Below are positions 3,205 through 27,254 of a DNA stretch of 64,000 bases, piece after piece. The notes under the pieces were generated by a model. It ran no database searches and was not told the origin of the DNA. It saw nothing but the letters and a program-made list of their open reading frames with translations. Origin of the DNA: an uncultured bacterium (lineage in GTDB: Bacteria > Fidelibacterota > Marinisomatia > Marinisomatales > UBA1611); the NCBI GenBank assembly GCA_943788175.1, contig CALSPG010000007.1:1-64000 (forward strand), read 5' to 3'. Both the position numbers and the translations under genes were made by a program. Position 1 is the stretch's first letter, and each line of letters begins with the position of its first letter.

Positions 3205-3207
3205 ATC

Positions 3208-5163: not shown

Positions 5164-5164
5164 G

Positions 5165-11178: not shown

Positions 11179-11234
11179 ACTACCTCTTTCATGTTATTAT
11201 TGATATGTGTTCTACCTACATTTCTAAGTAAACA

Positions 11235-11276
11235 AAATGTATATATAATTATAATTGAAAGTTTTTTTATATGCAA
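11235..11276 (-). promoter_or_regulatory. Sigma70-type promoter of the TBDR (TTGCAT-17-TATAAT) with overlapping operator AAATGTATATATAATT (11235-11250)
   Basis: -35 at 11276-11271, -10 at 11253-11248; operator matches the 8159 site at 13/16 positions. Confidence 0.6.
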
Positions 11277-11322
11277 GTTTGAAAATAAAATTAGCATGCT
11301 TCAGCTTTTTCAACGTTATTTC

Positions 11323-11365
11323 TTGATACTTGTGAGTAACAATACCTATAATTGTACATACAATT
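11323..11365 (+). promoter_or_regulatory. Sigma70-type promoter of the regulator operon (TTGATA-18-TATAAT) with overlapping operator AATTGTACATACAATT (11350-11365)
   Basis: -35 at 11323-11328, -10 at 11347-11352; near-perfect palindrome immediately downstream. Confidence 0.7.
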
Positions 11366-11382
11366 GAACATTTAAATCAGTT

Positions 11383-12462
11383 ATGATAATAAATAATAAA
11401 AGCTCAGTTCCAAAATACTTTCAACTGCAAACATGGCTACAAGACAGGATTGAACAGGGTTACTATGGTACCAATGAAAAAATTCCAACTGAAAATGAAT
11501 TAGTTAAGTTAAGCGGGTTGTCTAGGGCAACTGTACGGCAAGCATTAAAAAATTTAGAGAACGATGGCTATATTATAAGAAAAAAAAGGGTTGGCTCTTT
11601 TGTGCAAAAAACAAGAAAGCAAACCAATGGAATTACAACTATTGGGTTACTTATTCCCGATATTAGATCTGGTTATGCGCCTATTCTAGCAAGGGGTGCG
11701 GAAGATGAAGCAATTAAAAATGATGTAAACTTAATCCTCTGTAATACAGATGACACTCTAAGCCAAGCAAACTATCATATTGAACGATTGATTAAGATGT
11801 CAATTAGTGGTGTCATTTATATACCTGTTGCAGCAAGCGATAAAAAAAATCTACAGATTATAAATAAACTGAAAAGAAAAAACATACCTGTTGTCTTGGC
11901 AGATAGAGGCATTCAAGGTTCAGATTTCGATTTTGTTACAACTAATAATTTTGAAGGGTCCCGAGAAATTACTCAACACCTTATTAATAGAGGACATGAG
12001 AAAATAGCTTTTTTAAGTAATAAGGTGTACAGTACGGAAAGATTGAGATATGATGGTTTTATATCAAAATTGAAAGAATTAAAAATTGCTCAAGACCCAT
12101 CAATAACAATAATTGATAAAAGCGCATTTAATGTTAACAGATATCTAAATCATGCTCATAAAATTTTAAAAAACAGAAGAAAATTTACTGCTGTGTATGC
12201 TGGGCATGATAGAATCGCTTTATTGTTTTATGCTGCTGCTAAAAATTTAGGACTCAATGTTCCAGAAGATTTTTCACTAGTCGGCTATGATAATATGCCT
12301 TTGACAACAGTTTCCTTAACAACTATGCATCAACCTATTTATGAAATAGGTCAAGAAAGTATAAAACTAATTGTAGCCAGAATAAATAACAGGTCAATTA
12401 AAACTAAAAATATTATACTGAAATCAAACCTAATAAAAAGAAATTCAGTAAAGAGTATTTAA
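11383..12462 (+). CDS. AraR-like repressor (GntR wHTH + LacI-type effector-binding domain), probable inositol/phytate regulator
   Basis: PKYFQL..KIPTENEL..SRATVRQAL N-terminus; C-terminal PEDFSLVGYD, LTTMHQP. Confidence 0.9.
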   Translation: MIINNKSSVPKYFQLQTWLQDRIEQGYYGTNEKIPTENELVKLSGLSRATVRQALKNLENDGYIIRKKRVGSFVQKTRKQTNGITTIGLLIPDIRSGYAPILARGAEDEAIKNDVNLILCNTDDTLSQANYHIERLIKMSISGVIYIPVAASDKKNLQIINKLKRKNIPVVLADRGIQGSDFDFVTTNNFEGSREITQHLINRGHEKIAFLSNKVYSTERLRYDGFISKLKELKIAQDPSITIIDKSAFNVNRYLNHAHKILKNRRKFTAVYAGHDRIALLFYAAAKNLGLNVPEDFSLVGYDNMPLTTVSLTTMHQPIYEIGQESIKLIVARINNRSIKTKNIILKSNLIKRNSVKSI

Positions 12463-13471
12463 TGCGTCACCGAATAATTAATGTGGGACTTATTGGCTTG
12501 GGGCGTATCGGGAAAATGCATGCTAAAAATATCTGCGAAAAACTGCCTTCTATTAGAATTTAAAAGGTATAGCTGACCCAAAACCAGATCTAGATTTCAT
12601 TCAAAACCTTGGAGAAATAACAGTACATAAAAATGCCCAAGAAATTATTTCTGATAAAAATATTGATGCTGTTATTATTTCTTCTCCAACGCCAACACAT
12701 TTTAATCTGATTAAAAAATGCCTCAGAAACAATAAACATGTTTTCTGCGAAAAGCCTATTTCTTTTTCAAAAAACGAAATAAATGAGATCATTGACCTAA
12801 TGGTTATTCAGAAATCATTTGTCCAAGTTGGATTAAATAGAAGGTTTGATGAAGAATTTATTTTATTAAAAGAAAAAATAAAAGAAGGCCTAATTGGTAA
12901 AACACAAATAATACACATTACAAACCATGATAGTACTATCCCAAGATTCAAGTTTTTAAAAACATCTGGTGGCATGCTGTTTGACCTTTGCATCCATGAT
13001 TTTGATATGTTAACATTTATAACAGGTAAAAAAATAAAAGAAATATATGTTAATGGTTCTGTTTTCATAGAGCCAAGGTTAAAAGACATAAATGATATCG
13101 ATAATGCAATAATTACCCTAGAGCTTACAAATGGAGTTTTATGCACTATTGATAGCTCAAGACAAACTCATTTTGGATATGATCAAAGAATTGAAGTTTT
13201 TGGCTCAAAAGGAATGATCTCTATTGACAACAAACCAAACCAGCTATTTTTATTAAGTGACGAATCAAGAACAATTAAATCAAAAATTAAAAAGTCTTTT
13301 GTTGAAAGATATGAATCTTCATATATCAATGAACTTGAACATTTTTATAAATGTGTAATAAGCGATAAAAGTCCAATCGTGGGTCCAGAAAATATTTTAG
13401 ATGCGATACATATTGCGACCGCAGGAACCAAATCGCTAGAGCTAAACAGACCTATCATGGTGGAAAGATGA
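12462..13471 (+). CDS. Gfo/Idh/MocA inositol dehydrogenase, IolG-like paralog 1 (frameshift near 12555)
   Basis: ATG at 12462 overlaps the upstream stop (TAATG) and gives MRHRIINVGLIGLGRIGKMHA. After the frameshift: LKGIADP..HVFCEKP, then ORF 12800 with GLNRRFD, SGGMLFDLCIHDFD, GYDQRIEVFG. Confidence 0.85.
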
Positions 13472-14460
13472 ATAAAATTAATTTGGCCATTCTAGGGTTA
13501 GGTAGAATAGGGAAAGTGCATGCAGAAAATATTATTTCTTTAAATGAGTGTAATCTAAAAATTATAATTGACCCTGTATCAGATTTTGATAACAATTTCA
13601 CTGACCTAGGTATAAAACAATCAAAACATTTTGATGATCTTTTAAATGAAAATGATATTGATGGTGTTATAATATGTTCACCATCTAAATACCACGTTAG
13701 CCAAATTAAAAGTCTCTCAGACTTGACAAAGAATATTTTTTGTGAAAAACCTTTAGGCTTATCTATCGAAGAAATCCTTGATGTTAAGTCACTAGTAACA
13801 AAAAAAAGTCTCAATCTGCATATAGGCTTTAACAGAAGATATGATCCGGATTTTTCTGAATTGAAAAGACATATTTTAAATAATGAGATTGGTGACTTGC
13901 ATATGATCAAAATAACCTCTCGAGATCCCGCGCCACCACCAATTAGTTATATCAAAAAGTCTGGGGGAATATTCTTAGACATGACTATTCATGATTTTGA
14001 TATGGTTAAATATTTATCTGGATCAGAAATAGCTGAATTGTATGTTAAAGGTGGCTGCTTTGTTGATCCAGAAATAGAAAAAGCGAACGATGTTGATACA
14101 GCTATTATTAATATGAGTTTAAAAAACGGTGTTTTAGCAACAATCAATAATTCAAGGCAGGCAGTTTATGGTTACGACCAACGAATCGAAGTTCTAGGTT
14201 CAAAGGGAGTTTTAAAAGTTGAAAATAAGCTTTTAAATAAAGTTGTAAAAGGGACAAAAGAAGGATTTATATCATCAAACCCTCAAAACTTTTTTATTGA
14301 TAGATACGAACAATCATATAAAAAAGAATTATTGAATTTTGTACAATCAATAAAAGGCGACATTGTTGATTATGCAGATGCAGATGATGGTCTACATGCT
14401 CTTAAGGCAGGATTAGCCGCAAATAATTCATTATTAAACAACACTCCTTTCTTGGTTTAA
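13468..14460 (+). CDS. iolG: myo-inositol 2-dehydrogenase
   Basis: GLGRIG, CEKP, GFNRRYDP, ITSRDPAPPP, SGGIFLDMTIHDFD, YGYDQRIEV. Confidence 0.9.
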   Translation: MNKINLAILGLGRIGKVHAENIISLNECNLKIIIDPVSDFDNNFTDLGIKQSKHFDDLLNENDIDGVIICSPSKYHVSQIKSLSDLTKNIFCEKPLGLSIEEILDVKSLVTKKSLNLHIGFNRRYDPDFSELKRHILNNEIGDLHMIKITSRDPAPPPISYIKKSGGIFLDMTIHDFDMVKYLSGSEIAELYVKGGCFVDPEIEKANDVDTAIINMSLKNGVLATINNSRQAVYGYDQRIEVLGSKGVLKVENKLLNKVVKGTKEGFISSNPQNFFIDRYEQSYKKELLNFVQSIKGDIVDYADADDGLHALKAGLAANNSLLNNTPFLV

Positions 14461-14465
14461 ATGAT

Positions 14466-15440
14466 ATGCTAAGAACAAAAAAAGAAAATGTTTTTAGCCT
14501 TGTTATTATTTTCATTTTCTTATCTTGCTCTGGTATAGAAAAACAAAAAGATAAACCATTAAAAAAAGTTTCAATTAATATGGTAACTCATGGCCAAGCA
14601 ACTGATCCCTTTTGGAGCGTAGTTAGTAATGGCGCTAAAGACGCAGCTAAAGAACTTGGAATAGATTTTTATTATCAATCACCACAAAATTTTGATATGA
14701 TAACCATGTCACAAATAATTGATGCTGTTGTTTCAACTAACCCTGATGGTATCATTGTTTCTGTCCCAGACGTAGCAGCTTTAAAGAAGAGTATTTTAGC
14801 TGCATCAAAAAAAAATATACCTATCATCGTAATTAATGCTGGTAGCGAAATTATGGAAGAGGTTGATATCCTCACTTATGTAGGACAAAGTGAATATGAA
14901 GCAGGAATGAAAGCAGCAAAAGAATTAATAAAATACAATATTACAACTGCTCTATGTGTAAATCATGAAATTGGAAACATTAGCCTAGATAAGAGAGAAC
15001 AGGGTTTTAGAAAAGTTTTAAAAGAAAATAATATCGATGTGAAAACAATACCTATTGATGCCTCAGATCCATCAGTGGCTAGAGAAACAATTAGAGCATA
15101 CCTCTCTATAAACAACACGATAGATGGAATACTAACGCTCGGTCCGCTTGGAGCAATACCCATTATGAGTTTATTAAAAACCGTTGATAAAGAAAAAAAA
15201 ATCAAGTTAGCGACCTTTGATTTTACTCCTGAAATAATTGATGGTATTATGAATGATCAAATCGTTTTCGCTTTAGATCAGCAACAATATCTTCAAGGAT
15301 ACTTACCGGTTATATTAATGAATCTATATATAACCAATAAAAACACCCCCGCATTTGAAAAACTAGAAACGGGGCCTAGTATAATTAATATTAAAAATGC
15401 ACAAGATGTATTGGCTTTGAGCAAAAAAGGGAAAAGATAA
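14466..15440 (+). CDS. Sugar (probably inositol) ABC transporter substrate-binding lipoprotein
   Basis: Lipobox FLSC; VTHGQATDPFWSVV, DQQQYLQGYLP. Confidence 0.9.
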   Translation: MLRTKKENVFSLVIIFIFLSCSGIEKQKDKPLKKVSINMVTHGQATDPFWSVVSNGAKDAAKELGIDFYYQSPQNFDMITMSQIIDAVVSTNPDGIIVSVPDVAALKKSILAASKKNIPIIVINAGSEIMEEVDILTYVGQSEYEAGMKAAKELIKYNITTALCVNHEIGNISLDKREQGFRKVLKENNIDVKTIPIDASDPSVARETIRAYLSINNTIDGILTLGPLGAIPIMSLLKTVDKEKKIKLATFDFTPEIIDGIMNDQIVFALDQQQYLQGYLPVILMNLYITNKNTPAFEKLETGPSIINIKNAQDVLALSKKGKR

Positions 15441-16435
15441 TTTTATCTAAAAAAATATTTTCAAGACCAGAAACAGGTGCTTTACTCGGTCTCGTGTTCG
15501 TATGGTTATTTTTTGCGATTTTTGCTCATAACGGGTTCCTATCTATTTATGGTGTGAAGTCTTACCTCCAAGTTTCATCTGAAATTGGAATTCTTGCAGT
15601 AGGTGTTGCACTATTAATGATAGCTGGAGAATTTGATTTATCTATCGGGTCACTAATTGGTTTCTCAAGTATGTCAATAACATTACTAACAATCGAAGCA
15701 AATATGCCAATGCCTCTAGCATCTGTTTTGACTTTAATAATGACAATTTTTATTGGATATTGTAATGGTCTTACGGTCGTAAAAAGTGGCTTACCCTCTT
15801 TTATTATCACACTTGGATCTTTGTTTATTGTAAGGGGTTTAACCATTGCTGTAACAAAACTAATTACTGGTAGAACTCAAATTAGCGGAATTGATGAATC
15901 AAGTGGTTATGATTTTATGCATTCAATATTCAGCAGCAGCGTAAAAATAGCTGATGTTAATTTTCCTGTATCAATCTTCTGGTGGATCTTATTTGTCTTT
16001 TTAGGATACTTTATGTTAAACCAAACACAAATAGGAAATTGGATCTTTGCTACCGGTGCGTCAAAAGAGAGTTCAAAACTAATGGGCATACCTATTAGAA
16101 AAATAAAGGTTTCACTTTTCATGTTAACCGCATTTTGTGCCTGGTTTATTGCGGTGATTCAAGTAACTACTTTTAATGGCGCTGATGTTTTAAGGGGTGA
16201 GCAAAAAGAATTTATTTCAATAATCGCAGCTGTGATTGGAGGGACCTTACTCACAGGTGGATATGGTTCAATCATTGGTGTTATGATAGGAGCTTTAATT
16301 TTTGGTATTGTAAAGCAGGGAATAATTTTTGCAGGTATTGACGCTGATTGGTTCCAAGTGTTTATGGGTGTGATGTTGGTTTCTGCCGTTTTAGTTAATG
16401 GCAGTTTTAAAAAAAAGTACATTCATGAATTCTAA
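15437..16435 (+). CDS. Sugar ABC transporter permease (start probably upstream of 15494)
   Basis: IAGEFDLSIG, LPSFIITLG, AAVIGGTLLTGGYGS; the family motif RPETGAL lies in frame upstream of the GTG at 15494. Confidence 0.9.
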   Translation: MILSKKIFSRPETGALLGLVFVWLFFAIFAHNGFLSIYGVKSYLQVSSEIGILAVGVALLMIAGEFDLSIGSLIGFSSMSITLLTIEANMPMPLASVLTLIMTIFIGYCNGLTVVKSGLPSFIITLGSLFIVRGLTIAVTKLITGRTQISGIDESSGYDFMHSIFSSSVKIADVNFPVSIFWWILFVFLGYFMLNQTQIGNWIFATGASKESSKLMGIPIRKIKVSLFMLTAFCAWFIAVIQVTTFNGADVLRGEQKEFISIIAAVIGGTLLTGGYGSIIGVMIGALIFGIVKQGIIFAGIDADWFQVFMGVMLVSAVLVNGSFKKKYIHEF

Positions 16436-17156
16436 CAGACTAGATCTTCATAATATTTATAAAAACTTTGGGAACGTAAAAGCATTAAAAAATGTTTCTA
16501 TGAGTACTAACTCTGGACAAATTAATTGCATCCTTGGCGATAACGGAGCGGGGAAATCAACCTTAGTAAATATTATTTCTGGAGTCTTTCAGCAAGATGA
16601 AGGAGACTATAAAATTAACGATGAAATCGTTTCTTTCTCTAGCCCTATGGAAGCAATGAATGCTGGTATATCAACAGTATATCAAAATTTAGCTATCATA
16701 CCTATTATGAATATTTATAGAAATTTTTTTTTAGGCCAGGAACCAACAAAAAAAGGTTTTTTTAAAACCTTTGATAAAGAGTTTGCAACACGAACAACCA
16801 TTGAACAGTTAGAAAAATTTGATATTAAAATAGAAAACCCTAAAAGAGCAGCTGGTACACTTTCAGGCGGTGAAAGACAAATACTCGCAATTGCGCGAGC
16901 ACTATATTTTGGGGCGAAAATTCTCATTCTTGATGAACCTACTTCTGCTCTAGGGGTTAAAGAATCTAATAAAGTAGTAAATCAAATTATTTCACTTAAA
17001 AATCAAAATATTAATGTGATTCTCATTTCTCACAACATTGAGCAGGCATATATGCTCAGTGATAAATTTTTTATTATTAAAAATGGGGACATGATAGACC
17101 AGTTTGAAAAAAATCAAACATCTGTTAATGATTTGAGAAAAATTTTAGGAAAATAA
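16425..17156 (+). CDS. Sugar ABC transporter ATP-binding protein (single NBD)
   Basis: GDNGAGKST, LSGGERQ, ILDEPT; ATG at 16425 preferred as start. Confidence 0.92.
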   Translation: MNSNRLDLHNIYKNFGNVKALKNVSMSTNSGQINCILGDNGAGKSTLVNIISGVFQQDEGDYKINDEIVSFSSPMEAMNAGISTVYQNLAIIPIMNIYRNFFLGQEPTKKGFFKTFDKEFATRTTIEQLEKFDIKIENPKRAAGTLSGGERQILAIARALYFGAKILILDEPTSALGVKESNKVVNQIISLKNQNINVILISHNIEQAYMLSDKFFIIKNGDMIDQFEKNQTSVNDLRKILGK

Positions 17157-17189
17157 TTTATTTAATACAATGAAAGGGACAAAGTAAAA

Positions 17190-18071
17190 ATGGAAAAAAT
17201 AGGAGTAATTGGCCTTGGAAATATGGGTATGGGTATTGCAAAAAATGTAATCAATAACGGCTATAAAACAATGGGGTATGACCTACGTGATTCATGTTTA
17301 ACAGAATTAAAAAAAAATGGTGGTGACGCTGCAGAAAGTGTAGAAAAAGTAGGAGAATCTTGTGATGTGGTTTTTGTAATGGTAATGAATGGAGATCAAG
17401 TTAAGGATGTTGTTACAAAACTATCACCAGGGTTAAAGAACAGAGGTACAATAATTATAACAGCAACTATTACACCAGAAGAAGTAAGAGTTGCTCATAA
17501 AATTGCGCAAGAAAACAATATAAAAATGATTGATAGTCCTGTTAGTGGAGGCCTGCAGGGAGCACACGAAGGGACATTAACACTTATGACAGCAGCAGAA
17601 AACGAAGTGTTTGATAAATACAAACCTATTCTAGAATCAATATCAAAAAATATGTTTCATGTGGGTGTTAACATTGGAGATGGCCAAACCGTAAAGGCAT
17701 CTTTACAGGTTTTTATTGGCGCGACCTTCACAGCAATTTTTGAATCATTAGTTCTGGGTTCCAAAGCGGGAATCGATGGTAAAATTCTTTATGATGTTTT
17801 TAGCTCTAGTGGTGTAAGTAGTCCATTATTTAAAAATTGTGCCAGCTTAATAATGGATAGGAAATTTGAAAATACTGGAAGCCACATATCAACAATGCAT
17901 AAAGACCTTGGCATAAGCATGAGTATGGCTAAACAAAATGGCGTTCCTATGTTTACGGCTGCCGCAGCGTATGAATTATTTCAAGCTGGAATTTCAATGT
18001 ATCCGGAAGGTGATAATTGGTCTATTGTTAAATTGTTAGAAAAAATGTCTGATACAAAAGTTGAATGGTAA
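17190..18071 (+). CDS. NAD(P)-dependent beta-hydroxyacid dehydrogenase (MmsB/GarR/LtnD/YihU family)
   Basis: GVIGLGNMGMGIA, DSPVSGG, catalytic Lys in GQTVKA, KDL. Confidence 0.88.
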   Translation: MEKIGVIGLGNMGMGIAKNVINNGYKTMGYDLRDSCLTELKKNGGDAAESVEKVGESCDVVFVMVMNGDQVKDVVTKLSPGLKNRGTIIITATITPEEVRVAHKIAQENNIKMIDSPVSGGLQGAHEGTLTLMTAAENEVFDKYKPILESISKNMFHVGVNIGDGQTVKASLQVFIGATFTAIFESLVLGSKAGIDGKILYDVFSSSGVSSPLFKNCASLIMDRKFENTGSHISTMHKDLGISMSMAKQNGVPMFTAAAAYELFQAGISMYPEGDNWSIVKLLEKMSDTKVEW

Positions 18072-18106
18072 TTAATTAATTTTTAAAAAAAATAAAGGAA
18101 GAGAAA

Positions 18107-18973
18107 ATGGCAAAACTAGGTGTAATTACAGATGGAATAAGTACAGATTTTGAACACGCTTTAAAAATAATGAGTCAAAACAATTTAGATCAAGCAGAGC
18201 TACAATATCTATGGGATAAAGAAGTTGGTGATTTTGATAAATCTGAAATTGATAAAATTGAAGAACTTTTAAAAAAATATAACATGGATGTGTCTTGTAT
18301 CTCTCGTCATAATTTTGCAGGTGTTGGCGTACATGAAGTCAGTATTGGCGATGATACATACAACCATCATATGGAAAAATTAAAAGAGTGTATTGATATG
18401 GCCAAGAGATTCAATTCTCCCTTAGTGAGAATAATGAGTTTTAGAAAAGAAATGGTTTTGTTTGGTGAGCACGGTGCAGAAAAATGGAATGTTAGTGATG
18501 GTGCCTGGAATAAATTAGTAGAACTTTTAACTCCTGTCGTTAAGTTAGCAAAAGAATCAAATATTATGCTTGTAGTTGAAACAGGAAACAACGCAATGAT
18601 AACATCCTGTTTTCTAGGTAGAAAATTGATTGATGATTTAGATACAAAACATTTAAAAGTACTATGGGATCCTGCAAACGCTCTTTATTGTGGAGAAAAT
18701 CCAAGTAAGAATGCATTAGATTCCATGGAAGGCGGGTACCTTGGTCATGTGCACATGAAAGATGTTGAAGTTTCTATTCATCAGGCGAAAATTAAATGTG
18801 TAGCGCTTGGTGAAGGGCAAATGGCACCTCACCTACAGACAATATCAGAACGATTGGACCAAATAGGTTATGATGGTTCCATGTCTTTAGAGAGTGTTTA
18901 CAGACCAACCGAAGGAAATTTTGAAGATGGCTTTAATGCCTCCATAACAAAATTCAAAAATCTGTATTCGTAA
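18107..18973 (+). CDS. Sugar phosphate isomerase/epimerase, xylose-isomerase-like TIM barrel (AP_endonuc_2)
   Basis: LVVET, WDPAN, HVHMKD, LGEG, SLE metal-ligand pattern. Confidence 0.8.
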   Translation: MAKLGVITDGISTDFEHALKIMSQNNLDQAELQYLWDKEVGDFDKSEIDKIEELLKKYNMDVSCISRHNFAGVGVHEVSIGDDTYNHHMEKLKECIDMAKRFNSPLVRIMSFRKEMVLFGEHGAEKWNVSDGAWNKLVELLTPVVKLAKESNIMLVVETGNNAMITSCFLGRKLIDDLDTKHLKVLWDPANALYCGENPSKNALDSMEGGYLGHVHMKDVEVSIHQAKIKCVALGEGQMAPHLQTISERLDQIGYDGSMSLESVYRPTEGNFEDGFNASITKFKNLYS

Positions 18974-18993
18974 AAAGGAAGGGTTACTTTAGA

Positions 18994-20013
18994 ATGATTA
19001 TAAAAAATAATATATGTCTTCAAATTGCACATTTAACTCTGTTTTGTTTAGTACTACAGTTTTTTAATTCGTGTACAACAAGCGATAAGGGGTATGTTTT
19101 TAAATATTCTAATGAACAACCCGAGACAGCGATACGTAGTCAATCAATGCTTTTTTTTAAAGAGAGACTTGAAAAGGAATCGGATGGTAAAATTAAAGTA
19201 GACCTGTTTTTTAGTGGAGTACTTGGTAACGAAAGAGAACTTATGGACCTTGTTTCAACTGGTGCTCTCCAAGGCACTAGGGGAGGGTTTTTTAATGACG
19301 TTAATCCAAAGTTTAATTTACTCACGCTTCCTTTTCTTGTTTCTAATTGGGATGAAGCATCAAATTTAGTGAACAGTTCTTTGATGAAAACTATAAACGC
19401 TGGGTCTAGAACCAATGGCTTTCATGTTCCGGCAACAGGGATATCACAAGGATTTCGAGCTCACACAAATAATAAAAAACCAATTTTAACTCCACGTGAC
19501 TTTAAAGGTTTAAAAATGAGAGTTCCAATGCAAGAAGTTTTCATTCAGACAGCTCGGGCTTTCGGTGCAAACCCGCAGGAATTAGCAGCTATTGATATTT
19601 ATCAAGCACTACAAACCGGTGTTATTGATGGTCAAGATAATCCACCATCTAATATATGGGATTTTAAAATGTATGAAGTTTCAAAATACCTTACAGTTAC
19701 AAACTACGCAACAGGACCAGATCCTTTCATAGTTAACCTGAAATGGTATAATACGCTTCCACCTGAATTGAAAATTATTTTTGATAGAGTAGCGAAAGAG
19801 GCTATTGCTAAAAGCGATCAAATGAATAGAGAAAAAGAATCTGAATATCTAAATATGTTATCAAAACACTTAAAAATAAATTACATATCCGGAAAAGATC
19901 TGATTCCGTTTCAGGATGCAGTTAAGCCAGTTTATAATTATTTTATAAATAAAGGAATGTTTACAATGGCTGAGATTAAAGAGGCACAAAAAATTGCTAA
20001 GCAAAAAAACTAA
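18994..20013 (+). CDS. dctP: TRAP transporter substrate-binding protein (DctP family)
   Basis: LGNERE, GFR, FKGLKMRVP, ALQTGVIDGQDNP. Confidence 0.9.
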   Translation: MIIKNNICLQIAHLTLFCLVLQFFNSCTTSDKGYVFKYSNEQPETAIRSQSMLFFKERLEKESDGKIKVDLFFSGVLGNERELMDLVSTGALQGTRGGFFNDVNPKFNLLTLPFLVSNWDEASNLVNSSLMKTINAGSRTNGFHVPATGISQGFRAHTNNKKPILTPRDFKGLKMRVPMQEVFIQTARAFGANPQELAAIDIYQALQTGVIDGQDNPPSNIWDFKMYEVSKYLTVTNYATGPDPFIVNLKWYNTLPPELKIIFDRVAKEAIAKSDQMNREKESEYLNMLSKHLKINYISGKDLIPFQDAVKPVYNYFINKGMFTMAEIKEAQKIAKQKN

Positions 20014-20103
20014 CACATTAAAAAGAACAAAAACCATATTCTAAACTCCACAAAAAACAATTTCTTAATTATAAGTAGGTACTTAGAAAAAACTTTAATT
20101 GGT

Positions 20104-20532
20104 TTGCTGTTTTTTGTGTTTTCAATAACATTTATTCTTGTCTTTTTAAGGTATGTTCTTAATCAGTCTATAACGGGGGCAAATGAAATTGTAACAATTT
20201 TATTTATTTATACTACGGCTATTGGTTCAGCAATATCTATTGATAAAAACGAACATATTTCAATTGATATACTTGTTAATTATTTAAGTTTAAGGAATCA
20301 AAAAATAATCAAAACAGTACAACTGCTTTTGCTGGTTTTTCTACATATAACAATATTTGTATACTGTTTAGACTGGATTAAAACAGCGGGTGGATATCTA
20401 ATGCCAGCTACTGGTCTTCCAAGAATAATTACTATCGCAAGTATTCCTATTTGCTGTTTATTATCTATTTTATATTGTATTAATGCTGCTGGAAGACTCT
20501 TTACCAAACTCAGTGTGAGTGATAAAAACTAA
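20104..20532 (+). CDS. dctQ: TRAP transporter small permease (frame open upstream to about 20017)
   Basis: RYVLN..GANE, HISID; lies between dctP and dctM. Confidence 0.85.
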   Translation: MLFFVFSITFILVFLRYVLNQSITGANEIVTILFIYTTAIGSAISIDKNEHISIDILVNYLSLRNQKIIKTVQLLLLVFLHITIFVYCLDWIKTAGGYLMPATGLPRIITIASIPICCLLSILYCINAAGRLFTKLSVSDKN

Positions 20533-20535
20533 AAT

Positions 20536-21813
20536 ATGATAGTTTTATTATTTAGTCTATTTGCTTTTTTAGCAATTGGTGTTCCAATTGCATTTTCACT
20601 TGGACTTTCAACAACATTATATTTTATAATATTTAATAAAGACTTATTACAAGTTGTCCCTCAAATGTTATTTGCCGGGATGGACTCTTATACATTAATT
20701 GCTCTACCACTTTTTATTTTAATGGGACAATTAATGAATGAAAGTAAAATAACGTCCAGACTAATTGATTATTGCTTAATCTTTATTGGTAACATAAGAG
20801 GGGGACTTGGAATAGTAAATGTTATTTCTAGTATGCTCTTTGGTGGAATATCTGGTTCTTCTGTTTCTGACACAGCTTCTATCGGATCAATTTTAATTCC
20901 AGAAATGAAAAAACGCGGTTACCCAGAAGAATACGCTGCTGGACTTACAGTTGCTTCTTCTACAATGGGTATGATAATACCTCCCAGTATACCAATGGTC
21001 CTTTATGCCGTGACAGCACAGGAATCTGTGGGAAGATTATTTCTCGGAGGAGTGTTTCCAGGAATTATGGTAGGTGTTTTCCAACTCTTAATAACAATTG
21101 TGATTTCAAATAAAAATTGTTTCCCAAGAGAAAATAAAATTGTTTCTTTTGACACCATATTAAAAATGACAGCAAAAAACTCTTATATATTATTTATGCC
21201 TTTTTTTGTTGTTGGATCTGTGATTCTTGGAATAGCCACCCCAACAGAATCCGCGGCTCTAGGTGTCTTTTATGCTTTAATAATTGGTTTGTTTTTAATT
21301 AAAAGTCTGAATTTAAAACGAATTGTAAAAGCATTAAAAAGTGCTGTCTTAACAAGCGCAAAGATTATGATTATTATTGCTTTTTCCAAAATTTTTATAT
21401 GGGTCCTCGCTTTCGAAAGGGTACCAGATGAGCTGTCTGAAACAATATCTTCCTTAGGTTTAAATTCTACAAGCATGCTTTTATTGTTCGTTGTTATAAT
21501 ATTGATTTCAGGAACATTTATTGACGTTAGTCCAGCCATTTTATTGTTTACTCCTGTTTTTTTGCCAAGCATAATTCAATTAGGAGTGTCCCCGGTTTTG
21601 TTCGGAGTTGTTTTAGTCATTGGTCTTGCAGTTGGCGCCTGCACACCTCCTGTTGGTAACTGCTTGAATGTCTGTGCAATTATAACGGGGCTTAGTATTG
21701 GAAAGATTTTTAAAGGTGCTGCACCTTTTTTAATCGCAAACGTCGTTACGTTAATTATTATTGTACTGTTCCCCAAAATCGTTACTTGGTTACCAGAAGC
21801 AATAATGAAATAA
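20536..21813 (+). CDS. dctM: TRAP transporter large permease
   Basis: FGGISGSS, IIPPSIP, ATPTESA, TPPVG. Confidence 0.92.
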   Translation: MIVLLFSLFAFLAIGVPIAFSLGLSTTLYFIIFNKDLLQVVPQMLFAGMDSYTLIALPLFILMGQLMNESKITSRLIDYCLIFIGNIRGGLGIVNVISSMLFGGISGSSVSDTASIGSILIPEMKKRGYPEEYAAGLTVASSTMGMIIPPSIPMVLYAVTAQESVGRLFLGGVFPGIMVGVFQLLITIVISNKNCFPRENKIVSFDTILKMTAKNSYILFMPFFVVGSVILGIATPTESAALGVFYALIIGLFLIKSLNLKRIVKALKSAVLTSAKIMIIIAFSKIFIWVLAFERVPDELSETISSLGLNSTSMLLLFVVIILISGTFIDVSPAILLFTPVFLPSIIQLGVSPVLFGVVLVIGLAVGACTPPVGNCLNVCAIITGLSIGKIFKGAAPFLIANVVTLIIIVLFPKIVTWLPEAIMK

Positions 21814-21835
21814 AATTTATAAAAACAAATAAGGA

Positions 21836-22720
21836 TTGAATAAAATGGAATATGACATAACACTAATAGGTAATTACACTAAAGATAAAATTGTAACACC
21901 AACGGAAACGAAATATGTTGATGGTGGTGGTTTTAACTATGGCGCACACGCTGCCATTGCCTTAGGTGCAAAAACTGCCGCAATTACTCGCTTAAAAGAA
22001 AGTGACAAACACGTGGTTGATAATTTAGTAAGTACTGGTGTTGATGCATTTCCTACCTATACAAAAAATTCAACTCATATGGAGCTTATATATCCAACAG
22101 ATGATTTCGACGATAGAGTTTTAGTTATGCCTAAGTCAGCTGGATCGTTCACATCAGATCAATTTAAAAATATTAAGTCTAAAGTTTTTTTAGTAAATGC
22201 TTCAATTAGAGATGAGTTCAAAGTTGAAACATTAGTTGATCTGAAAAAAAAAGGATCTCTAATTGGAATAGATTTGCAAGGTTTCATTAGAACTATAGAC
22301 AAGAATAATATTTTAATAAACAGTAATTGGAAAGAAAAAGAAGAAGCTTTAGGGTTAACGCATTATTTAAAAGCGGATGGTGTTGAAGCAGAGTTTTTAA
22401 CGGGAGAATCAGATTTAATATCAGCAGCTAAAATTTTAAAATCTTATGGACCTAAAGAAGTTATAATTACACACAAAGACGGCGTTCTTGTTTATGATGG
22501 TGAAAACATTTACCAAGAGCCATTCATTCTTGATAAAATTATTGGTCGTAGTGGAAGGGGTGATACTTGTGGCGCGAGCTATGTTTATAAACGCTTAACA
22601 TTAAACCCAAAAAATTCAATTAAATGGGCTGCTGCTGCAACTAGTTTAAAAATGGAATCAGATACCCCTCTTAAAAACACAATGCATGAAATTGAAAATA
22701 GAGTAAGTAAATATAAATGA
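21836..22720 (+). CDS. PfkB/ribokinase-family kinase, probable pyrophosphate-dependent myo-inositol kinase (TM0415-like)
   Basis: Anion-hole motif GRSGRGDT (RxGRGD instead of GAGD), DLQGFIR, LKAD..EAE.LTG, TSLKM. Confidence 0.75.
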   Translation: MNKMEYDITLIGNYTKDKIVTPTETKYVDGGGFNYGAHAAIALGAKTAAITRLKESDKHVVDNLVSTGVDAFPTYTKNSTHMELIYPTDDFDDRVLVMPKSAGSFTSDQFKNIKSKVFLVNASIRDEFKVETLVDLKKKGSLIGIDLQGFIRTIDKNNILINSNWKEKEEALGLTHYLKADGVEAEFLTGESDLISAAKILKSYGPKEVIITHKDGVLVYDGENIYQEPFILDKIIGRSGRGDTCGASYVYKRLTLNPKNSIKWAAAATSLKMESDTPLKNTMHEIENRVSKYK

Positions 22721-22741
22721 TTAAATAAGCTAAGTTAAACT

Positions 22742-24070
22742 ATGCTAACCTTAATATATCTTTTAATAACAATTGTATTTATTGTCCTTTCTACAGCTAA
22801 ATACAAGATTCACCCTTTCTTAACTCTACTTATTGCTTCTTTAGGAATGGGCGTATTGAGTGGTTTAGATGTTGATTTTGTTATTAAGACTGTTTCAGAA
22901 GGTTTTGGAAACACCTTAAAAAGTATAGGAATTATAATTGCGTGTGGTTCAATTATTGGTACTTTTTTAGAAAAAACAGGTGCTGCAAAATCTATAGCTA
23001 ACAAACTTTTACAAGTTATTGGAAATAAAAACTCTGCTTTAGCAATGAATTTAACTGGAAGCATCGTATCTATTCCCGTGTTTTGCGATTCAGGTTTTGT
23101 CATACTTTCCACATTAAATAATGCAATAAACAAAAAAACCGGTATATCACTTTCCGTGCTGGGCACATCTCTTGCTGCTGGATTATACGCAACTCATGTG
23201 TTTGTACCTCCAACCCCTGGGCCTTTAGCAGCAGCATCTATAATTGGTGCAGATGTAGGGCTTGTTTTAATTTTTGGTTTGTTAACTGCAATTCCAGTAT
23301 CAATAGTTGGTTGGGTTTGGGCATCATATTACTGTTCTAGGTTTTCGATAAATCAAAAAATTGATAATGACGATCTCAATATTGAAACTAAAAACAATAT
23401 AAAGCTAACAATGTCAATTCTACCTATCATTGTTCCCATTGTGCTCATTACGCTTAAATCAATAATTAATCACCCAGCTGTGGAATTAGAAAACCTATTT
23501 ATCAATAATGTTATCTCTTTTTGTGGACACCCAATTATAGCAATTCTCTTTGGGGTTTTTATCGCGATGTTTTCTGCTACTAATTTTTCATTGGAGCAAC
23601 ATTTTGATTGGGTTTCTAATGCTCTCAAATCAGCAGGTGGTATAATACTTATTACTGGTGCTGGTGGTGCTTTTGGTAATATTTTAAGAGCAACATCACT
23701 TGGAGATACTATAAGTCAAAGTCTTTTGAGTTTTGAAGTAGGACTCCTCTTACCGTTCATTATTGCTGCTTTTTTAAAAACAGCACAGGGGTCATCAACT
23801 GTATCAATTATTACCACGTCAGCGATGGTTTTACCATTACTAGATTCGCTAGGCTTATCAAGTGAAATGGGTAAAGTGCTTACAGTGCTTTCAATTGGTG
23901 CTGGCGCAATGACTGTTAGTCATCTAAACGATAGTTATTTTTGGATAGTATCTCAGTTTTCAAACATGAATACTAAGACAGCATTACATTGTCATACTGC
24001 GTCAACACTATTACAAGGTTTAACGAGTATTGTTTTGATAAAAATCATATCACTATTTTTATTAGTATAA
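22742..24070 (+). CDS. GntP-family sugar-acid:H+ symporter
   Basis: KIHPF, SIPVFCDSG, VPPTPGP, KTAQGSST, SHLNDS.FW. Confidence 0.9.
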   Translation: MLTLIYLLITIVFIVLSTAKYKIHPFLTLLIASLGMGVLSGLDVDFVIKTVSEGFGNTLKSIGIIIACGSIIGTFLEKTGAAKSIANKLLQVIGNKNSALAMNLTGSIVSIPVFCDSGFVILSTLNNAINKKTGISLSVLGTSLAAGLYATHVFVPPTPGPLAAASIIGADVGLVLIFGLLTAIPVSIVGWVWASYYCSRFSINQKIDNDDLNIETKNNIKLTMSILPIIVPIVLITLKSIINHPAVELENLFINNVISFCGHPIIAILFGVFIAMFSATNFSLEQHFDWVSNALKSAGGIILITGAGGAFGNILRATSLGDTISQSLLSFEVGLLLPFIIAAFLKTAQGSSTVSIITTSAMVLPLLDSLGLSSEMGKVLTVLSIGAGAMTVSHLNDSYFWIVSQFSNMNTKTALHCHTASTLLQGLTSIVLIKIISLFLLV

Positions 24071-24072
24071 TA

Positions 24073-24861
24073 TCATACGTTTGTCGTTTTACTTATATCT
24101 GTAATTATTCCGCTAATCCCTAAGTTTTTACAGAAAGCAATAGAAGATTTTGAATTTACAGTCCAAGTATTAATAAAAATATTTCTCTTCTTACATATAC
24201 TTATTAGGTCTTTATTTAAAAAATCTGCTCTTGGGTGTATACAATCAGGATGACAAAAGTTCATCCATTTTAACATATTTATATTTTCAATTAAAAACCC
24301 CGTTTTAACATACGGTATTAACCATCTTGAGTAAAAAACTATAAGAGGATTAAAAGAGGATATTAAAATGTTTTGTCTTATTCTATTTTTTTTTAAAAAT
24401 GTTTTAAGCGCCGAAATTGTAGAGAAATCAAAAAGACCTGAAAACTTAATTTCTATATTTAGCCTAATATTGTCTGATATATTATTGAAAACGTCTTCTA
24501 TCCTTGGGATGTTTTTTTGATTGCTGGGGTGGGAAAATACTCCTGTTTTTATTTTATCTAATTTTGTTGAAATCATTTGGTGTATGTATCCTGACGAATC
24601 TGTTTCCTGCTCAAGTTGATGATTATGAGAACAATATAACACACCATCTTTTGAAGAAATTATATCGAGTTCTATACCACTAAAACCTCTTTCTTCAGAT
24701 TCTTTATATGCCTCTAACGTGTTTTCTGGATAATCATTGGTAACACCTCTATGAGAAAACAACATCGGTTCTGAAGAATAAAAGTCTTTCATTCCTCGAC
24801 CACTCCAATATCTTAAATAACTAACAATTATTAATAAAAGAATAAAACAAATTAAAATCAT
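24073..24861 (-). CDS. Glycerophosphodiester phosphodiesterase (GDPD), N-terminally membrane anchored
   Basis: HRG..PENT, ELD, NIEIK, ISSF, WTVN, GIITD. Confidence 0.88.
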   Translation of the reverse strand: MILICFILLLIIVSYLRYWSGRGMKDFYSSEPMLFSHRGVTNDYPENTLEAYKESEERGFSGIELDIISSKDGVLYCSHNHQLEQETDSSGYIHQMISTKLDKIKTGVFSHPSNQKNIPRIEDVFNNISDNIRLNIEIKFSGLFDFSTISALKTFLKKNRIRQNILISSFNPLIVFYSRWLIPYVKTGFLIENINMLKWMNFCHPDCIHPRADFLNKDLISICKKRNIFINTWTVNSKSSIAFCKNLGISGIITDISKTTNV

Positions 24862-27254
24862 TTTAAAGGCAGGAGTGTTAACCTTCTAAATTCTTTGCTT
24901 TCCCTTATATATGTTTCGTCAAACCAAGTGGTCCTATATTTACCACTATGATATAAATCAGCTTGGTCATCATAATGTTTGCTGTTGTATAGACCTGATT
25001 GACCCGTGGGAATAATTTGTTGTGTCCCATTCAAATTACTAAAATCTACTACACGCCTCATTGAAGCACCTGCTGTTTGAGCATAAGGTTTGCTAAAAGA
25101 ATAAGACCCGGCGTTTGGTGATTTATCTGAACCGCCGGAGAGATATGGACCAACATTAAAATCAAATATCCAATCTAAAACTTTCTTACTACCCATTTTG
25201 TGCTCGTGTTTTAAGTAGTGAGCTCTCCCCCATTCCCAGTTTTTCATGTTGTGCCCTACGATATTTTCAATGTCTTCTATACCATTAATGAATGATTTTT
25301 TTAATACCTCTTCAAGCGTTTCTATTTTTTCTTTTGTTCTTATGTCGTCTACCCATGAAGAAGAACCGTCTGCCAAAATTTTCCTTAAACTTCTACTGTG
25401 TAAATACTTCATAGATGTAAAAGCTTCTAAATATTTATCGCCCAGTAAAGATAGCTCATCGCCAAATAATTCAATCACTAATTGACGAAGAACAGAGTGA
25501 AATATAAGCGCACCTTTTGAATCAGGGCTTTCAATAAAATCCCAATCCTTAAGTATTTCCATAGACTTATTAATTTTTTCGTTTTCCTGTGTAATGTTTA
25601 CTGATAGAAAGTATGGTGTGATTTCTTTAGCAAATAAAGAGGTGTAGTCAAGTTGAACTGCTTTCATATCATCAACACTTGCCCTGCTTAAGGTGTCAAG
25701 TCGAGATACAATCTGTTGTGCTCTACTGGGGTCAGCCCACAAGCCACTTATATAGTATGGGAATTTGTCATCGATTGTTTTATTGTTGGCAGTCGCTATA
25801 TACCCCGACTCAGGATTAAACAAATAAGGCATTTCTTTATATGGAACTCTCCCCTCCCAGTCAAAATCGGGATCATGACCCGGCCTAGGTATAAGACTTG
25901 AGCCTTCTTTTCTAATCGGAACGTAAACAGCGGGTCTCCAACCTATATTACCAAATACATCTGCGTAGACAATATTTTGACCGGGAACACCATAATTTTT
26001 TACGGCTTTAGAAAAATCATCCCAGTTTTTTGAAGTCGCCAAACCAAATAACCCGTCAATTTCTTTTGTTAACCAATTACCCGTCCAAGCCATGGAGAGC
26101 GCAACGGTATCCTCATTTATTAGACTGTGTACATCCGTGATAATTGGTCCATGGTGTGTTAACCTAATTGTAATTGTTGTGTCCTTATCATTTTTTAAAG
26201 GTATTTTTTCTTTAATCACCACCATATCTTGATAGCTATCATTGTATAAATATTGATTTTTGTTTTTTGGGTTTATTGATTCAATAAAAAAATCCATATC
26301 GTCAACCATTGAATTTGTTAAACCCCAAGCCATATGTTCGTTTTGACCAATAATTGGCATAGGGATGCCAGCTAGACAAAGACCGCTTACATTGAATCGG
26401 CCGCCTTTTAAATGCATTTCATACCACCTTGGAGGCTGTGTGAATTTTAAATGTGGATCATTCGCTAAAAGAGGTTTACCGGATTCAGTTCGAGTACCCG
26501 ATACAACCCAGTTATTAGAACCGGAAACGGAAGAATTATAACCAAGTAGTTTTTCAAGTAATAATTCTTGATCCATGATTTTTGAAAAAGAAATATTATT
26601 AACTGTTTGTGTTTTTTTAGTTATAGTTGGATGATTATCGGCATAATATGGATATACTTCTTTTAGTTTTTCTTTTCCAAAATAATTCTCAATTGCTCCA
26701 AACACAATTTCTGGCTTCCATGAGGATGACATTTCTCGAGCCATCATTCTTGCATATCCCGTAACAATAGAGGGGTTCCAAATAGGTGGCTTTAATTGAA
26801 GTATTTTAAATTCAATTGGCAAGTCGTCGTACACCTCGTCAATTCGGTAATTTATACCTGCACAAAATGCGTTTATCAAAGAGACTGTTTCAGGATCTAG
26901 TTCTTTAACTAGTTTTTTAGCTGTGTCGTGTATTCTCCAGGTTCTAAGGTAAATATCACTTTCAAGTAATTCATCTCCCAGGGCATATGATAATTCTCCC
27001 CTAACAGAAAAATTAACTATCGACATTTGAAACAGTCTGTCTCTAGCAGCGTAATAACCGGCGGCATAAAATAAATCTTCTTCGTTTTGAGCAAAAAGAT
27101 GAGGTACACCAAAATTATCCGTATAAATATCTACAGAATTATTAAGACCAGCTATTGAGTGATGACCTTCATATTTTGGTGTTGGATGAATAAAATACCA
27201 ATATATTATCGAAATAATAAATATTATCGTTATAGTGATAAGTTTGTTTTTCAT
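24858..27254 (-). CDS. Penicillin acylase family Ntn-hydrolase (peptidase S45)
   Basis: FGVPH, ARDRLFQM, GSNNW nucleophile, LANDPHL, TGQSG..HYDDQ. Confidence 0.92.
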   Translation of the reverse strand: MKNKLITITIIFIISIIYWYFIHPTPKYEGHHSIAGLNNSVDIYTDNFGVPHLFAQNEEDLFYAAGYYAARDRLFQMSIVNFSVRGELSYALGDELLESDIYLRTWRIHDTAKKLVKELDPETVSLINAFCAGINYRIDEVYDDLPIEFKILQLKPPIWNPSIVTGYARMMAREMSSSWKPEIVFGAIENYFGKEKLKEVYPYYADNHPTITKKTQTVNNISFSKIMDQELLLEKLLGYNSSVSGSNNWVVSGTRTESGKPLLANDPHLKFTQPPRWYEMHLKGGRFNVSGLCLAGIPMPIIGQNEHMAWGLTNSMVDDMDFFIESINPKNKNQYLYNDSYQDMVVIKEKIPLKNDKDTTITIRLTHHGPIITDVHSLINEDTVALSMAWTGNWLTKEIDGLFGLATSKNWDDFSKAVKNYGVPGQNIVYADVFGNIGWRPAVYVPIRKEGSSLIPRPGHDPDFDWEGRVPYKEMPYLFNPESGYIATANNKTIDDKFPYYISGLWADPSRAQQIVSRLDTLSRASVDDMKAVQLDYTSLFAKEITPYFLSVNITQENEKINKSMEILKDWDFIESPDSKGALIFHSVLRQLVIELFGDELSLLGDKYLEAFTSMKYLHSRSLRKILADGSSSWVDDIRTKEKIETLEEVLKKSFINGIEDIENIVGHNMKNWEWGRAHYLKHEHKMGSKKVLDWIFDFNVGPYLSGGSDKSPNAGSYSFSKPYAQTAGASMRRVVDFSNLNGTQQIIPTGQSGLYNSKHYDDQADLYHSGKYRTTWFDETYIRESKEFRRLTLLPLK

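Follow-up and report, generated by a model that had tools for sequence, protein, structure and literature searches.

The closest described relatives of the gene examined here are the pyrophosphate (PPi)-dependent inositol kinases of the TM0415 type, which were discovered biochemically in 2018 (Nagata et al., 2018, PMC5931981). TM0415 of Thermotoga maritima (PDB 1VK4, 5YSP, and 5YSQ) phosphorylates the 1-hydroxyl of inositol to yield inositol 1-phosphate (Ins(1)P), with Km values of 12 mM for inositol and <15 µM for PPi, and because of the 12 mM Km its authors doubted inositol as the acceptor and suspected another compound, for example a pathway intermediate, as the true one (PMC5931981). Its donor site is marked by the RxGRGD motif, in which R229 and R232 flank the glycines of GXGD and D234 is catalytic; in those ribokinase-family enzymes that depend on ATP, a small residue (A, C, V, S, or T) at the second GXGD position admits the nucleotide (PMC5931981). 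PPi use has been shown for TM0415 and for homologs No. 7 and No. 49, and homologs No. 48 and No. 111 were inactive on the acceptors tried (PMC5931981). We analyzed a 64,000-nucleotide stretch of DNA (henceforth the window; contig CALSPG010000007.1 of assembly GCA_943788175.1) from an uncultured bacterium of the Fidelibacterota, in which an earlier note, made from the sequence alone, had placed a PPi-dependent myo-inositol kinase inside a phytate locus. The gene in question, at 21845-22720, encodes what we predict to be a further member of this already known family, of the subtype represented by homolog No. 49 from Levilinea saccharolytica.

With homolog No. 49, myo-inositol was the one acceptor of 14 that led to the release of phosphate (Pi) from PPi; no signal came from 2-keto-3-deoxygluconate (KDG), glycerol, or erythritol, ATP and ADP were not used, and the products were three inositol monophosphates, none of them Ins(1)P; as the main text describes the panel, 5-dehydro-2-deoxygluconate (DKG) and dihydroxyacetone lay outside it (PMC5931981). 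MI3K_TK (TK2285 of Thermococcus kodakarensis, PDB 4XF7) resembles the window's kinase as a ribokinase-family enzyme with inositol as acceptor, and its L77 and L87 are the counterparts of residues L84 and L96 in the kinase, but it is an ATP-dependent 3-kinase with a small residue in GXGD and without the two arginines. IolC (5-dehydro-2-deoxygluconokinase, TIGR04382) has the PfkB superfamily and a place in inositol clusters in common with the kinase and differs in its donor motif. LguH of Luteolibacter is a PPi-using KDG kinase of the PfkB superfamily, with a sugar acid as substrate, that also accepts ATP (PMC12632266), unlike TM0415 and homolog No. 49. The PPi-dependent forms of phosphofructokinase (PPi-PFK) and of acetate kinase (PPi-ACK) are PPi phosphotransferases like the kinase, but their folds are unrelated.

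A predicted PPi donor site of the TM0415 family

The open frame runs from 21836 to 22720 on the forward strand and gives 294 residues when counted from the TTG at 21836. An AAGGA lies 9 nt before the ATG at 21845, with TTG 21836 overlapping it, and 120/120 database homologues among the matches listed are 291 residues long. Because of the AAGGA spacing and the length of the homologues we prefer ATG 21845 as start, so that the gene likely occupies 21845-22720 and encodes 291 residues. Homologues with 80-100% identity are marine metagenome proteins, one of them labelled Candidatus Marinimicrobia, and in a by-eye reading of the listed N-termini that of the kinase shows no signal-peptide-like segment.

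Pfam places the protein only in the broad PfkB family (PF00294, 41.3 bits against a cut-off of 25.8, residues 8-274). Six weak NCBIfam matches (E ≤0.01), including 1-phosphofructokinase, KDG kinase, and ribokinase models, reach 18-30 bits against cut-offs of 216-700, and the IolC model TIGR04382 (membership cut-off 300 bits) gives no match at E ≤0.01. By contrast with these weak matches, a sequence search of the PDB, which returned seven chains at E ≤1, found three TM0415 sequences matching residues 6-281 at E-values of 5.5e-39, 1.5e-37, and 3.2e-37 (132-137 bits); the next match had an E-value of 8.9e-06, and 4XF7 (MI3K_TK) was absent from the matches. Since the match is full length and the next chain follows only at 8.9e-06, the likeness to TM0415 points to homology rather than chance, although the two proteins are only roughly one third identical.

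Residues were mapped with the printed HMMER alignment to TM0415 and with a MAFFT alignment that included 93 full-length family representatives. By this mapping all five published PPi determinants are kept in the kinase, as K179, F230, R238, R241, and M273. They lie in motifs that the earlier note had quoted and that are all present in the gene. In YLKAD (residues 177-181, 22364-22378, forward strand as for all motifs of the gene), K179 is the counterpart of the PPi-binding K171 of TM0415, and D181 opens a DxxE form of the NXXE Mg motif that ends with E184. F230 of QEPF (residues 227-230, 22514-22525) corresponds to F221, whose bulk occupies the ATP pocket. GRSGRGDT (residues 237-244, 22544-22567) is the RxGRGD motif, with R238, R241, and the catalytic D243 at the positions of R229, R232, and D234. 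Finally, TSLKM (residues 269-273, 22640-22654) supplies K272 at the monovalent-cation site (K265 in TM0415) and M273, the equivalent of M266, which likewise fills the ATP pocket. In the MAFFT alignment T212 and the D181/E184 Mg site are also kept, and the fold, the DxxE site, and the Lys in the cation site are common to TM0415 and the kinase. The exact KFRRM pattern occurs in 25 of the 93 aligned representatives and KFRRL in 19. The assignment of a TM0415-type PPi signature in the earlier note is thus borne out by alignment along the full length of the protein, and we consider the gene product very probably a PPi-dependent enzyme of the TM0415 family.

The same data bear on IolC, which the earlier note had dismissed as the identity of this gene. 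Arg241 stands at the second GXGD position, where ATP-dependent kinases of the ribokinase family carry a small residue; because of this arginine and the missing match to the IolC model, we agree that the kinase is not IolC. It follows as an annotation rule that a PfkB gene with RxGRGD and the K, F, and M residues should not be called IolC, fructokinase, or ribokinase.

The family is scarce: among 1.84 billion cluster representatives, 1101 match at E 1e-3, 530 at 1e-10, and 91 at 1e-30. A quick maximum-likelihood tree was built from 84 rows after removal of ten representatives that were truncated or frame-shifted; in it the proteins with both arginines form one clade apart from 12 relatives without them (SH-aLRT 99). 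This sister clade (P0177, P0194, P0198, P0211, P0221, P0230, P0232, P0234, P0240, P0244, P0249, and P0255) reads GCGD or GAGD, lacks the two arginines, and still has the K171 equivalent and the inositol-contact residues, with a pocket of F-N-Q-L; its members are presumably nucleotide-dependent relatives.

An acceptor pocket of the Levilinea subtype

TM0415 and the kinase have their inositol contacts in common. In the MAFFT alignment D17, Q148, and R152 stand at the positions of D11, Q141, and R145, and the segment DLQGFIR (residues 146-152, 22271-22291) keeps D146, Q148, and R152 as D139, Q141, and R145, which make Mg-water and inositol contacts, in agreement with the D.QGF.R segment recognized in the earlier note. 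The remainder of the pocket is changed: M82 and L84 in HMELIY (22076-22093) replace I76 and N78 of TM0415, L96 in RVLVM (22115-22129) replaces S89, and S123 in VNASI (22193-22207) replaces L116. The kinase therefore lacks the acceptor site of TM0415 proper (I76, N78, S89, and L116) and has the substitutions N78L, S89L, and L116S of homolog No. 49, a difference that the earlier note had missed. Homolog No. 49 also has the same five donor residues, a comparison made through its published residues. On these residues the acceptor pocket is assigned to the Levilinea subtype (L-L-S).

The L-L-S proteins, including the kinase, form one clade (5/84 tree rows, SH-aLRT 99); representatives of the clade are 43-46% identical to the kinase, those of the N78 type 32-37%. 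The top PDB match of the kinase is 7e4l, a TM0415 chain with L at positions 78 and 89, which we take to be part of a study that altered the position of phosphorylation. With M/L/L/S in place of I76/N78/S89/L116, the Ins(1)P regiochemistry of TM0415 should therefore not be assumed for the kinase. TM0415 itself had been described in the earlier note as a myo-inositol 3-kinase, which has to be corrected: the published product is Ins(1)P, phosphorylated at the 1-hydroxyl (PMC5931981).

One metagenome protein with an L-L-S-type kinase, P0123 (445 residues, on a single 2.5-kb contig), carries an N-terminal domain of ~145 residues with an HCxxxxR-like motif, labelled protein tyrosine phosphatase at its source and without a Pfam match at E 1e-5.

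The kinase gene accompanies putative organophosphate importers and exported phosphatases

We scanned one genome per species for related loci and obtained 405 pattern matches, 381 of which encode relatives; the best 80 of the 381 loci were kept, and these span at least eight phyla, with bacteria from soil, sediment, and ocean. Open reading frames (ORFs) were called crudely, and an intact main kinase ORF was present in 72/80 loci, on which the counts are based; those dropped (L035, L036, L049, L053, L056, L059, L065, and L083) are mostly GC-rich loci in which a spurious antisense frame displaced the gene. Neighbours were grouped by all-against-all blastp and their representatives named with Pfam and NCBIfam. 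All 72 locus kinases read [M/L]-L-[L/I/V]-[S/T] in the pocket, together with K, F/W, R, R, D, and M/L/I.

Directly upstream of the kinase gene and on the same strand, 43 of 62 evaluable loci encode a transporter of one MFS family, separated by a gap of ≤39 nt in 40/43. This protein matches the UhpC, PgtP, and GlpT models with 242-260 bits, all under cut-off, and the GlpT structure 1pw4 with an E-value of 3.7e-52, and because of these model and structure matches we regard it as a putative organophosphate:Pi antiporter. The linkage is found in Acidobacteriota, Fidelibacterota, Bacteroidota, Ignavibacteriota, Verrucomicrobiota, and Calditrichota. The antiporter is missing from loci of Spirochaetota and Thermodesulfobacteriota, which have an ABC importer instead (a fused permease in six loci, a binding protein in five), whose binding protein best matches AfuA (4R72-4R75, E 6e-48) and then a pyridoxal-phosphate binding protein. 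AfuABC is an importer of hexose and heptose phosphates (PMC4546632).

The gene directly downstream of the kinase, again in the 62 evaluable loci, encodes a Metallophos phosphoesterase in 17, a histidine acid phosphatase in three, and a beta-propeller phytase in three. Anywhere in the 72 loci we find IolG (28), IolM (28), IolN (22), IolO (22), beta-propeller phytase (15), and TonB receptors (14), with IolM, IolN, and IolO over the NCBIfam cut-offs at 501, 317, and 342 bits. Judged by eye, the phosphatases and phytases have signal-peptide- or lipoprotein-like N-termini, and the kinase is the sole cytoplasmic phosphotransfer enzyme encoded in the loci. Since two unrelated organophosphate importers and exported phosphatases or phytases adjoin the kinase gene, it would be a phosphorylated inositol that enters the cell.

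Most loci pair the kinase with the oxidative route IolM/IolN/IolO of the Thermotoga type, the window and a few others with the classical IolD/IolE/IolB. The examined pocket residues are the same in both ring-cleavage settings (DMLLSDQR pattern), and because the two routes share only inositol and scyllo-inosose, the kinase would act at the top of the pathway, at the step between inositol and inositol monophosphate (InsP). One kinase subtype is thus tied to importers of phosphate esters, to phytases, and to both ring-cleavage routes, which gives the family a testable role.

Four loci (L037, L061, L073, and L085) carry both PPi-type kinase subtypes, L-L-S and I-N-x-L, a few kb apart, an arrangement that different positional specificities would fit.

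Kinase, phytase, and inositol genes in the host and its phylum

The host assembly (2.27 Mb, 12 contigs, 92% complete) encodes an H+-pyrophosphatase (H+-PPase, 881 bits), which the earlier note had advised looking for, along with genes of CDP-inositol or phosphatidylinositol synthesis. MIPS, an NTP-transferase, and a gene resembling CDP-glycerol:poly(glycerophosphate) glycerophosphotransferase stand in a row on the minus strand (L093, C5:286000-297000, ORFs 3073-6174). This MIPS operon suggests a CDP-inositol-type glycopolymer pathway, and the host would therefore use inositol phosphate anabolically. No IolC over cut-off was found in the host genome (best 72 bits against 300), and IolC was rejected as the identity of the kinase on this count as well as on the absent TIGR04382 match. 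Neither IolN nor a methylmalonate-semialdehyde dehydrogenase over cut-off was found in the genome, and an IolJ-type aldolase is missing from the locus, with one class II aldolase encoded elsewhere in the genome.

We then sampled the phylum with 201 genomes, 200 drawn evenly plus the host, calling the kinase family at E 1e-40 or better. The family is present in 21/201 genomes and in none of the two same-genus and six same-family genomes, an absence that makes its distribution patchy. Ten of the 21 positive genomes have IolD, eight have IolN, and three have neither; IolD occurs in 10/201 genomes and IolN in 13/201. A beta-propeller phytase is encoded in 14/201, namely in 9/21 kinase-positive and 5/180 kinase-negative genomes. 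The kinases fall into two score classes. The high class (≥409 bits) comprises ten genomes, seven of them with phytase, and is of the L-L-S subtype where checked (L107 and L111). The low class (247-299 bits) is of an N78-like subtype (DINCI, DFNSL, DFLCL). The host is the only IolD-positive genome of the sample with the L-L-S subtype as its sole family member.

The N78-like kinase is encoded in an operon that reads sodium:solute symporter, PhnP-like protein, kinase, IolG-like protein, IolD, IolE, transaldolase-family protein, and IolB (L100-L106, L108, and L110), and in one genome with IolN, IolO, and UxaE instead. The PhnP-like protein has a metallo-beta-lactamase fold (PhnP structure, E 1.3e-16; PhnP model, 95 bits, under the cut-off of 272) and suggests a cyclic or diester phosphate as precursor. 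Found with either the IolD operon or IolN/IolO, this sister subtype is likewise not bound to one cleavage route, and here too a gene for phosphoester processing accompanies the kinase.

A possible role in inositol phosphate use and its rivals

In soils and sediments, phytate and the lower inositol phosphates make up a large organic phosphorus pool, and to our knowledge the intracellular completion of inositol-phosphate breakdown in bacteria is poorly described. Inositol and InsP are the probable physiological substrate pair of the kinase. That the enzyme is a reversible PPi:inositol phosphotransferase in phytate and inositol-phosphate use, working plausibly towards PPi, has in our judgment about an even chance of being right. 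A TonB receptor, a beta-propeller phytase, and exported phosphatases would strip phytate outside the cytoplasm, and the organophosphate:Pi antiporter, perhaps with the flanking anion permeases, would import the last inositol monophosphates. In the cytoplasm the kinase would convert InsP and Pi to inositol and PPi; the freed inositol would pass to IolG and ring cleavage, and the PPi to the membrane H+-PPase. From the genes that surround the kinase we infer the direction, the in vivo acceptor, and the cargo of the transporters.

For net PPi formation in vivo, taken alone, we rate the odds as somewhat short of even. By standard values, PPi hydrolysis yields about -16 to -22 kJ/mol, and hydrolysis of sugar-alcohol phosphates about -9 to -14 kJ/mol. 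PPi formation could nevertheless become favourable, since an H+-PPase would keep the PPi/Pi ratio low. Precedents from other folds are that PPi-PFK is reversible and that the Entamoeba PPi-ACK is thought to work towards PPi (PMC5931981), so that a reverse direction may by analogy be envisaged here. The Km of 12 mM of TM0415 fits inositol as a product rather than a substrate, as we read it. Tentatively, and with less confidence again, the kinase may be seen as in effect a phosphorolytic inositol-monophosphatase, by which the last phosphoester of phytate would pass through PPi into proton-motive force across at least eight phyla; the loose regiochemistry of the L-L-S subtype would then be an adaptation to mixed InsP isomers. 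If PPi is indeed formed, this would be a new way to conserve phosphoester energy and another case of PPi energetics in carriers of H+-PPase. A reverse reaction on imported InsP had been the more speculative proposal of the earlier note, and of its two proposals it is the one best supported by gene context, through the organophosphate importers and the H+-PPase.

Several observations weigh against this role. Under standard conditions the PPi-forming direction is uphill by about 5-10 kJ/mol. All activities measured in the family are in the kinase direction, with the PPi Km of TM0415 at <15 µM; its authors doubt inositol as homolog No. 49's true acceptor too; and a term search of the main text for a reverse reaction came up empty for every family member (PMC5931981). 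The open literature that we searched likewise yielded neither a physiological role nor a reverse reaction for TM0415-type kinases. Two IMPase-family genes in the host genome could hydrolyse InsP without the kinase. In the window the antiporter gene stands apart from the kinase, is frame-broken, and is cut by the contig end, and the genes directly beside the kinase encode a TRAP system and a GntP permease, which belong to families known chiefly for carboxylates. The counts leave out eight of the 80 loci, and related genomes are not independent samples. Finally, all ten IolD-positive genomes of the sample have the kinase family, and IolC over cut-off was found neither in the host nor in any of five other kinase-bearing genomes checked (four IolD-positive, one of these split across contig ends), a pattern that would also fit a role inside the IolDEB route.

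The measured kinase direction would suit an enzyme that phosphorylates inositol with PPi, either for an anabolic sink such as a CDP-inositol-dependent glycopolymer or lipid or to make an inducer. The L/L residues of the pocket are those of the ATP-dependent 3-kinase MI3K_TK (L77 and L87), which makes Ins(3)P a possible product; the host's MIPS gene beside a nucleotidyltransferase and a glycerophosphotransferase-like gene provides a use for inositol phosphate, and inositol-type ABC importers also occur in the loci. We nonetheless consider forward phosphorylation unlikely, given that the gene sits in catabolic operons with IolG and ring-cleavage genes and directly after an organophosphate importer in many phyla, with linkage to biosynthetic genes in 0/72 loci. 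Moreover, salvage is unneeded in a genome with its own MIPS, and the isomer mixture of homolog No. 49 is more in keeping with scavenging than with a defined biosynthetic precursor. Salvage to Ins(3)P, as put forward in the earlier note, thus keeps the host's MIPS operon in its favour and fits the conserved catabolic context poorly. Similarly improbable is a PPi kinase for a later intermediate, which would replace IolC on DKG or phosphorylate dihydroxyacetone or a sugar acid imported via TRAP and GntP. Such a role would explain why IolC is over cut-off neither in the host nor in the five other genomes, four with IolD, and why the family accompanies IolD in 10/10 genomes, with the sister subtype ~1 kb from IolD in at least seven. 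It has a precedent in the KDG kinase LguH (PMC12632266), and the authors of the TM0415 study propose pathway intermediates as acceptors, DKG and dihydroxyacetone being outside their panel of 14 as the main text gives it (PMC5931981). However, the same pocket subtype mostly accompanies IolM/IolN/IolO, a route on which no DKG arises, and in one complete genome the kinase is present while both IolD and a transaldolase-type gene are missing. A transaldolase-family gene that tracks IolD could explain, with no kinase involved, why IolC and IolJ are lost, and homolog No. 49 was silent on KDG, glycerol, and erythritol (PMC5931981). A role as KDG kinase was set aside as unlikely on the same missing KDG signal. 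By far the least probable reading is an ordinary ATP-dependent PfkB sugar kinase of the IolC, KdgK, fructokinase, or ribokinase type with an incidental likeness to TM0415. The broad Pfam assignment and the weak NCBIfam matches would allow it, but the latter, at 18-30 bits against cut-offs of 216-700, stand against 132-137 bits along the full length of TM0415. An arginine occupies the place where a small residue must admit the nucleotide, and F230 and M273 would fill the adenosine pocket. Neither ATP nor ADP was accepted by the two tested proteins whose donor sites of this type are active, according to the main text (PMC5931981).

Organization of the window's locus

Like TM0415, the kinase is encoded among inositol catabolic genes; the Thermotoga operon holds IolM/IolN/IolO and an ABC importer, and the window holds IolD/IolE/IolB and a phytase, with TRAP and GntP genes beside the kinase. 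On the minus strand an operon runs from a TonB-dependent receptor, present as two overlapping frames (8280-11178; plug 10096-11178, barrel 8280-10124), through a beta-propeller phytase (7035-8126; PF02333, 346 bits), IolD (5165-7021; 934 bits, cut-off 715), IolE (4273-5163; 373.7 bits, cut-off 290), a transaldolase/FSA-family gene (3208-4272), an IolB-family isomerase (2440-3204; 90.6 bits, under the NCBIfam cut-off of 205), and a PhoD-like phosphatase (1009-2436) to the MFS transporter of the organophosphate:Pi antiporter type (1-1021), which is 55-62% identical to the kinase-preceding transporter of other phyla and is truncated by the end of the contig.

Divergent from the phytase operon, the plus strand begins with a GntR-HTH/periplasmic-binding-fold regulator (11383-12462), followed by an IolG paralogue (12408-13471) with a frame break near 12557-12563, the IolG inositol 2-dehydrogenase (13468-14460; 390 bits, cut-off 355), and a sugar ABC importer (14466-17156) whose binding protein resembles the binding protein for rhizopine, an inositol derivative. 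A HIBADH/L-threonate-dehydrogenase-like reductase and a xylose-isomerase-fold protein (17190-18973), with weak IolO and IolE similarity, come next; the reductase could reduce malonate semialdehyde. The TRAP genes DctP, DctQ, and DctM (18994-21813) lie directly upstream of the kinase, with a gap of 22-31 nt, and a GntP-family anion permease (22742-24070) starts 21 nt downstream of it. In a further genome of the phylum, a phytase gene is followed by a GntP homologue 46% identical to that of the window (L109, G186:C18), and in yet another a DctP 55% identical to that of the window lies just downstream of an antiporter-kinase-phosphoesterase set (L107, G120:C4); because of these homologues, both neighbouring transporters, TRAP and GntP, may be part of the phytate system. 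A promoter and terminator scan of 11000-25000 found sites no more numerous than in shuffles.

Transaldolase/FSA donors need a free hydroxymethyl next to the keto group. Because of this requirement, unphosphorylated DKG, rather than DKG 6-phosphate, would be the natural substrate of the transaldolase-family protein, and IolC and IolJ would then be unnecessary. The window's protein is hence a candidate for a bypass that needs no kinase, in which unphosphorylated DKG would be split or act as the donor of a transfer. All four IolD-positive genomes checked have orthologues (42-75% identical), within ~2 kb of IolD in three and ~11 kb away in the fourth, and none was found in the one IolD-negative genome checked. 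Besides the window, the gene occurs at L094-L097, L101-L103, L105, L106, and L109.

Frame changes affect three genes of the window, the antiporter (164-198), the TonB receptor (10096-10124), and the first IolG paralogue (12557-12563), and may reflect real decay or assembly errors. An aldehyde dehydrogenase gene elsewhere in the host genome is also split (C1:8944-9907), by one TAG. Contig C9 of the host encodes at L001 (17-1459, plus strand) an ABC-ATPase-like protein that ends in a long tail built from near-identical, ~26-residue repeats in which S, N, K, and P abound.

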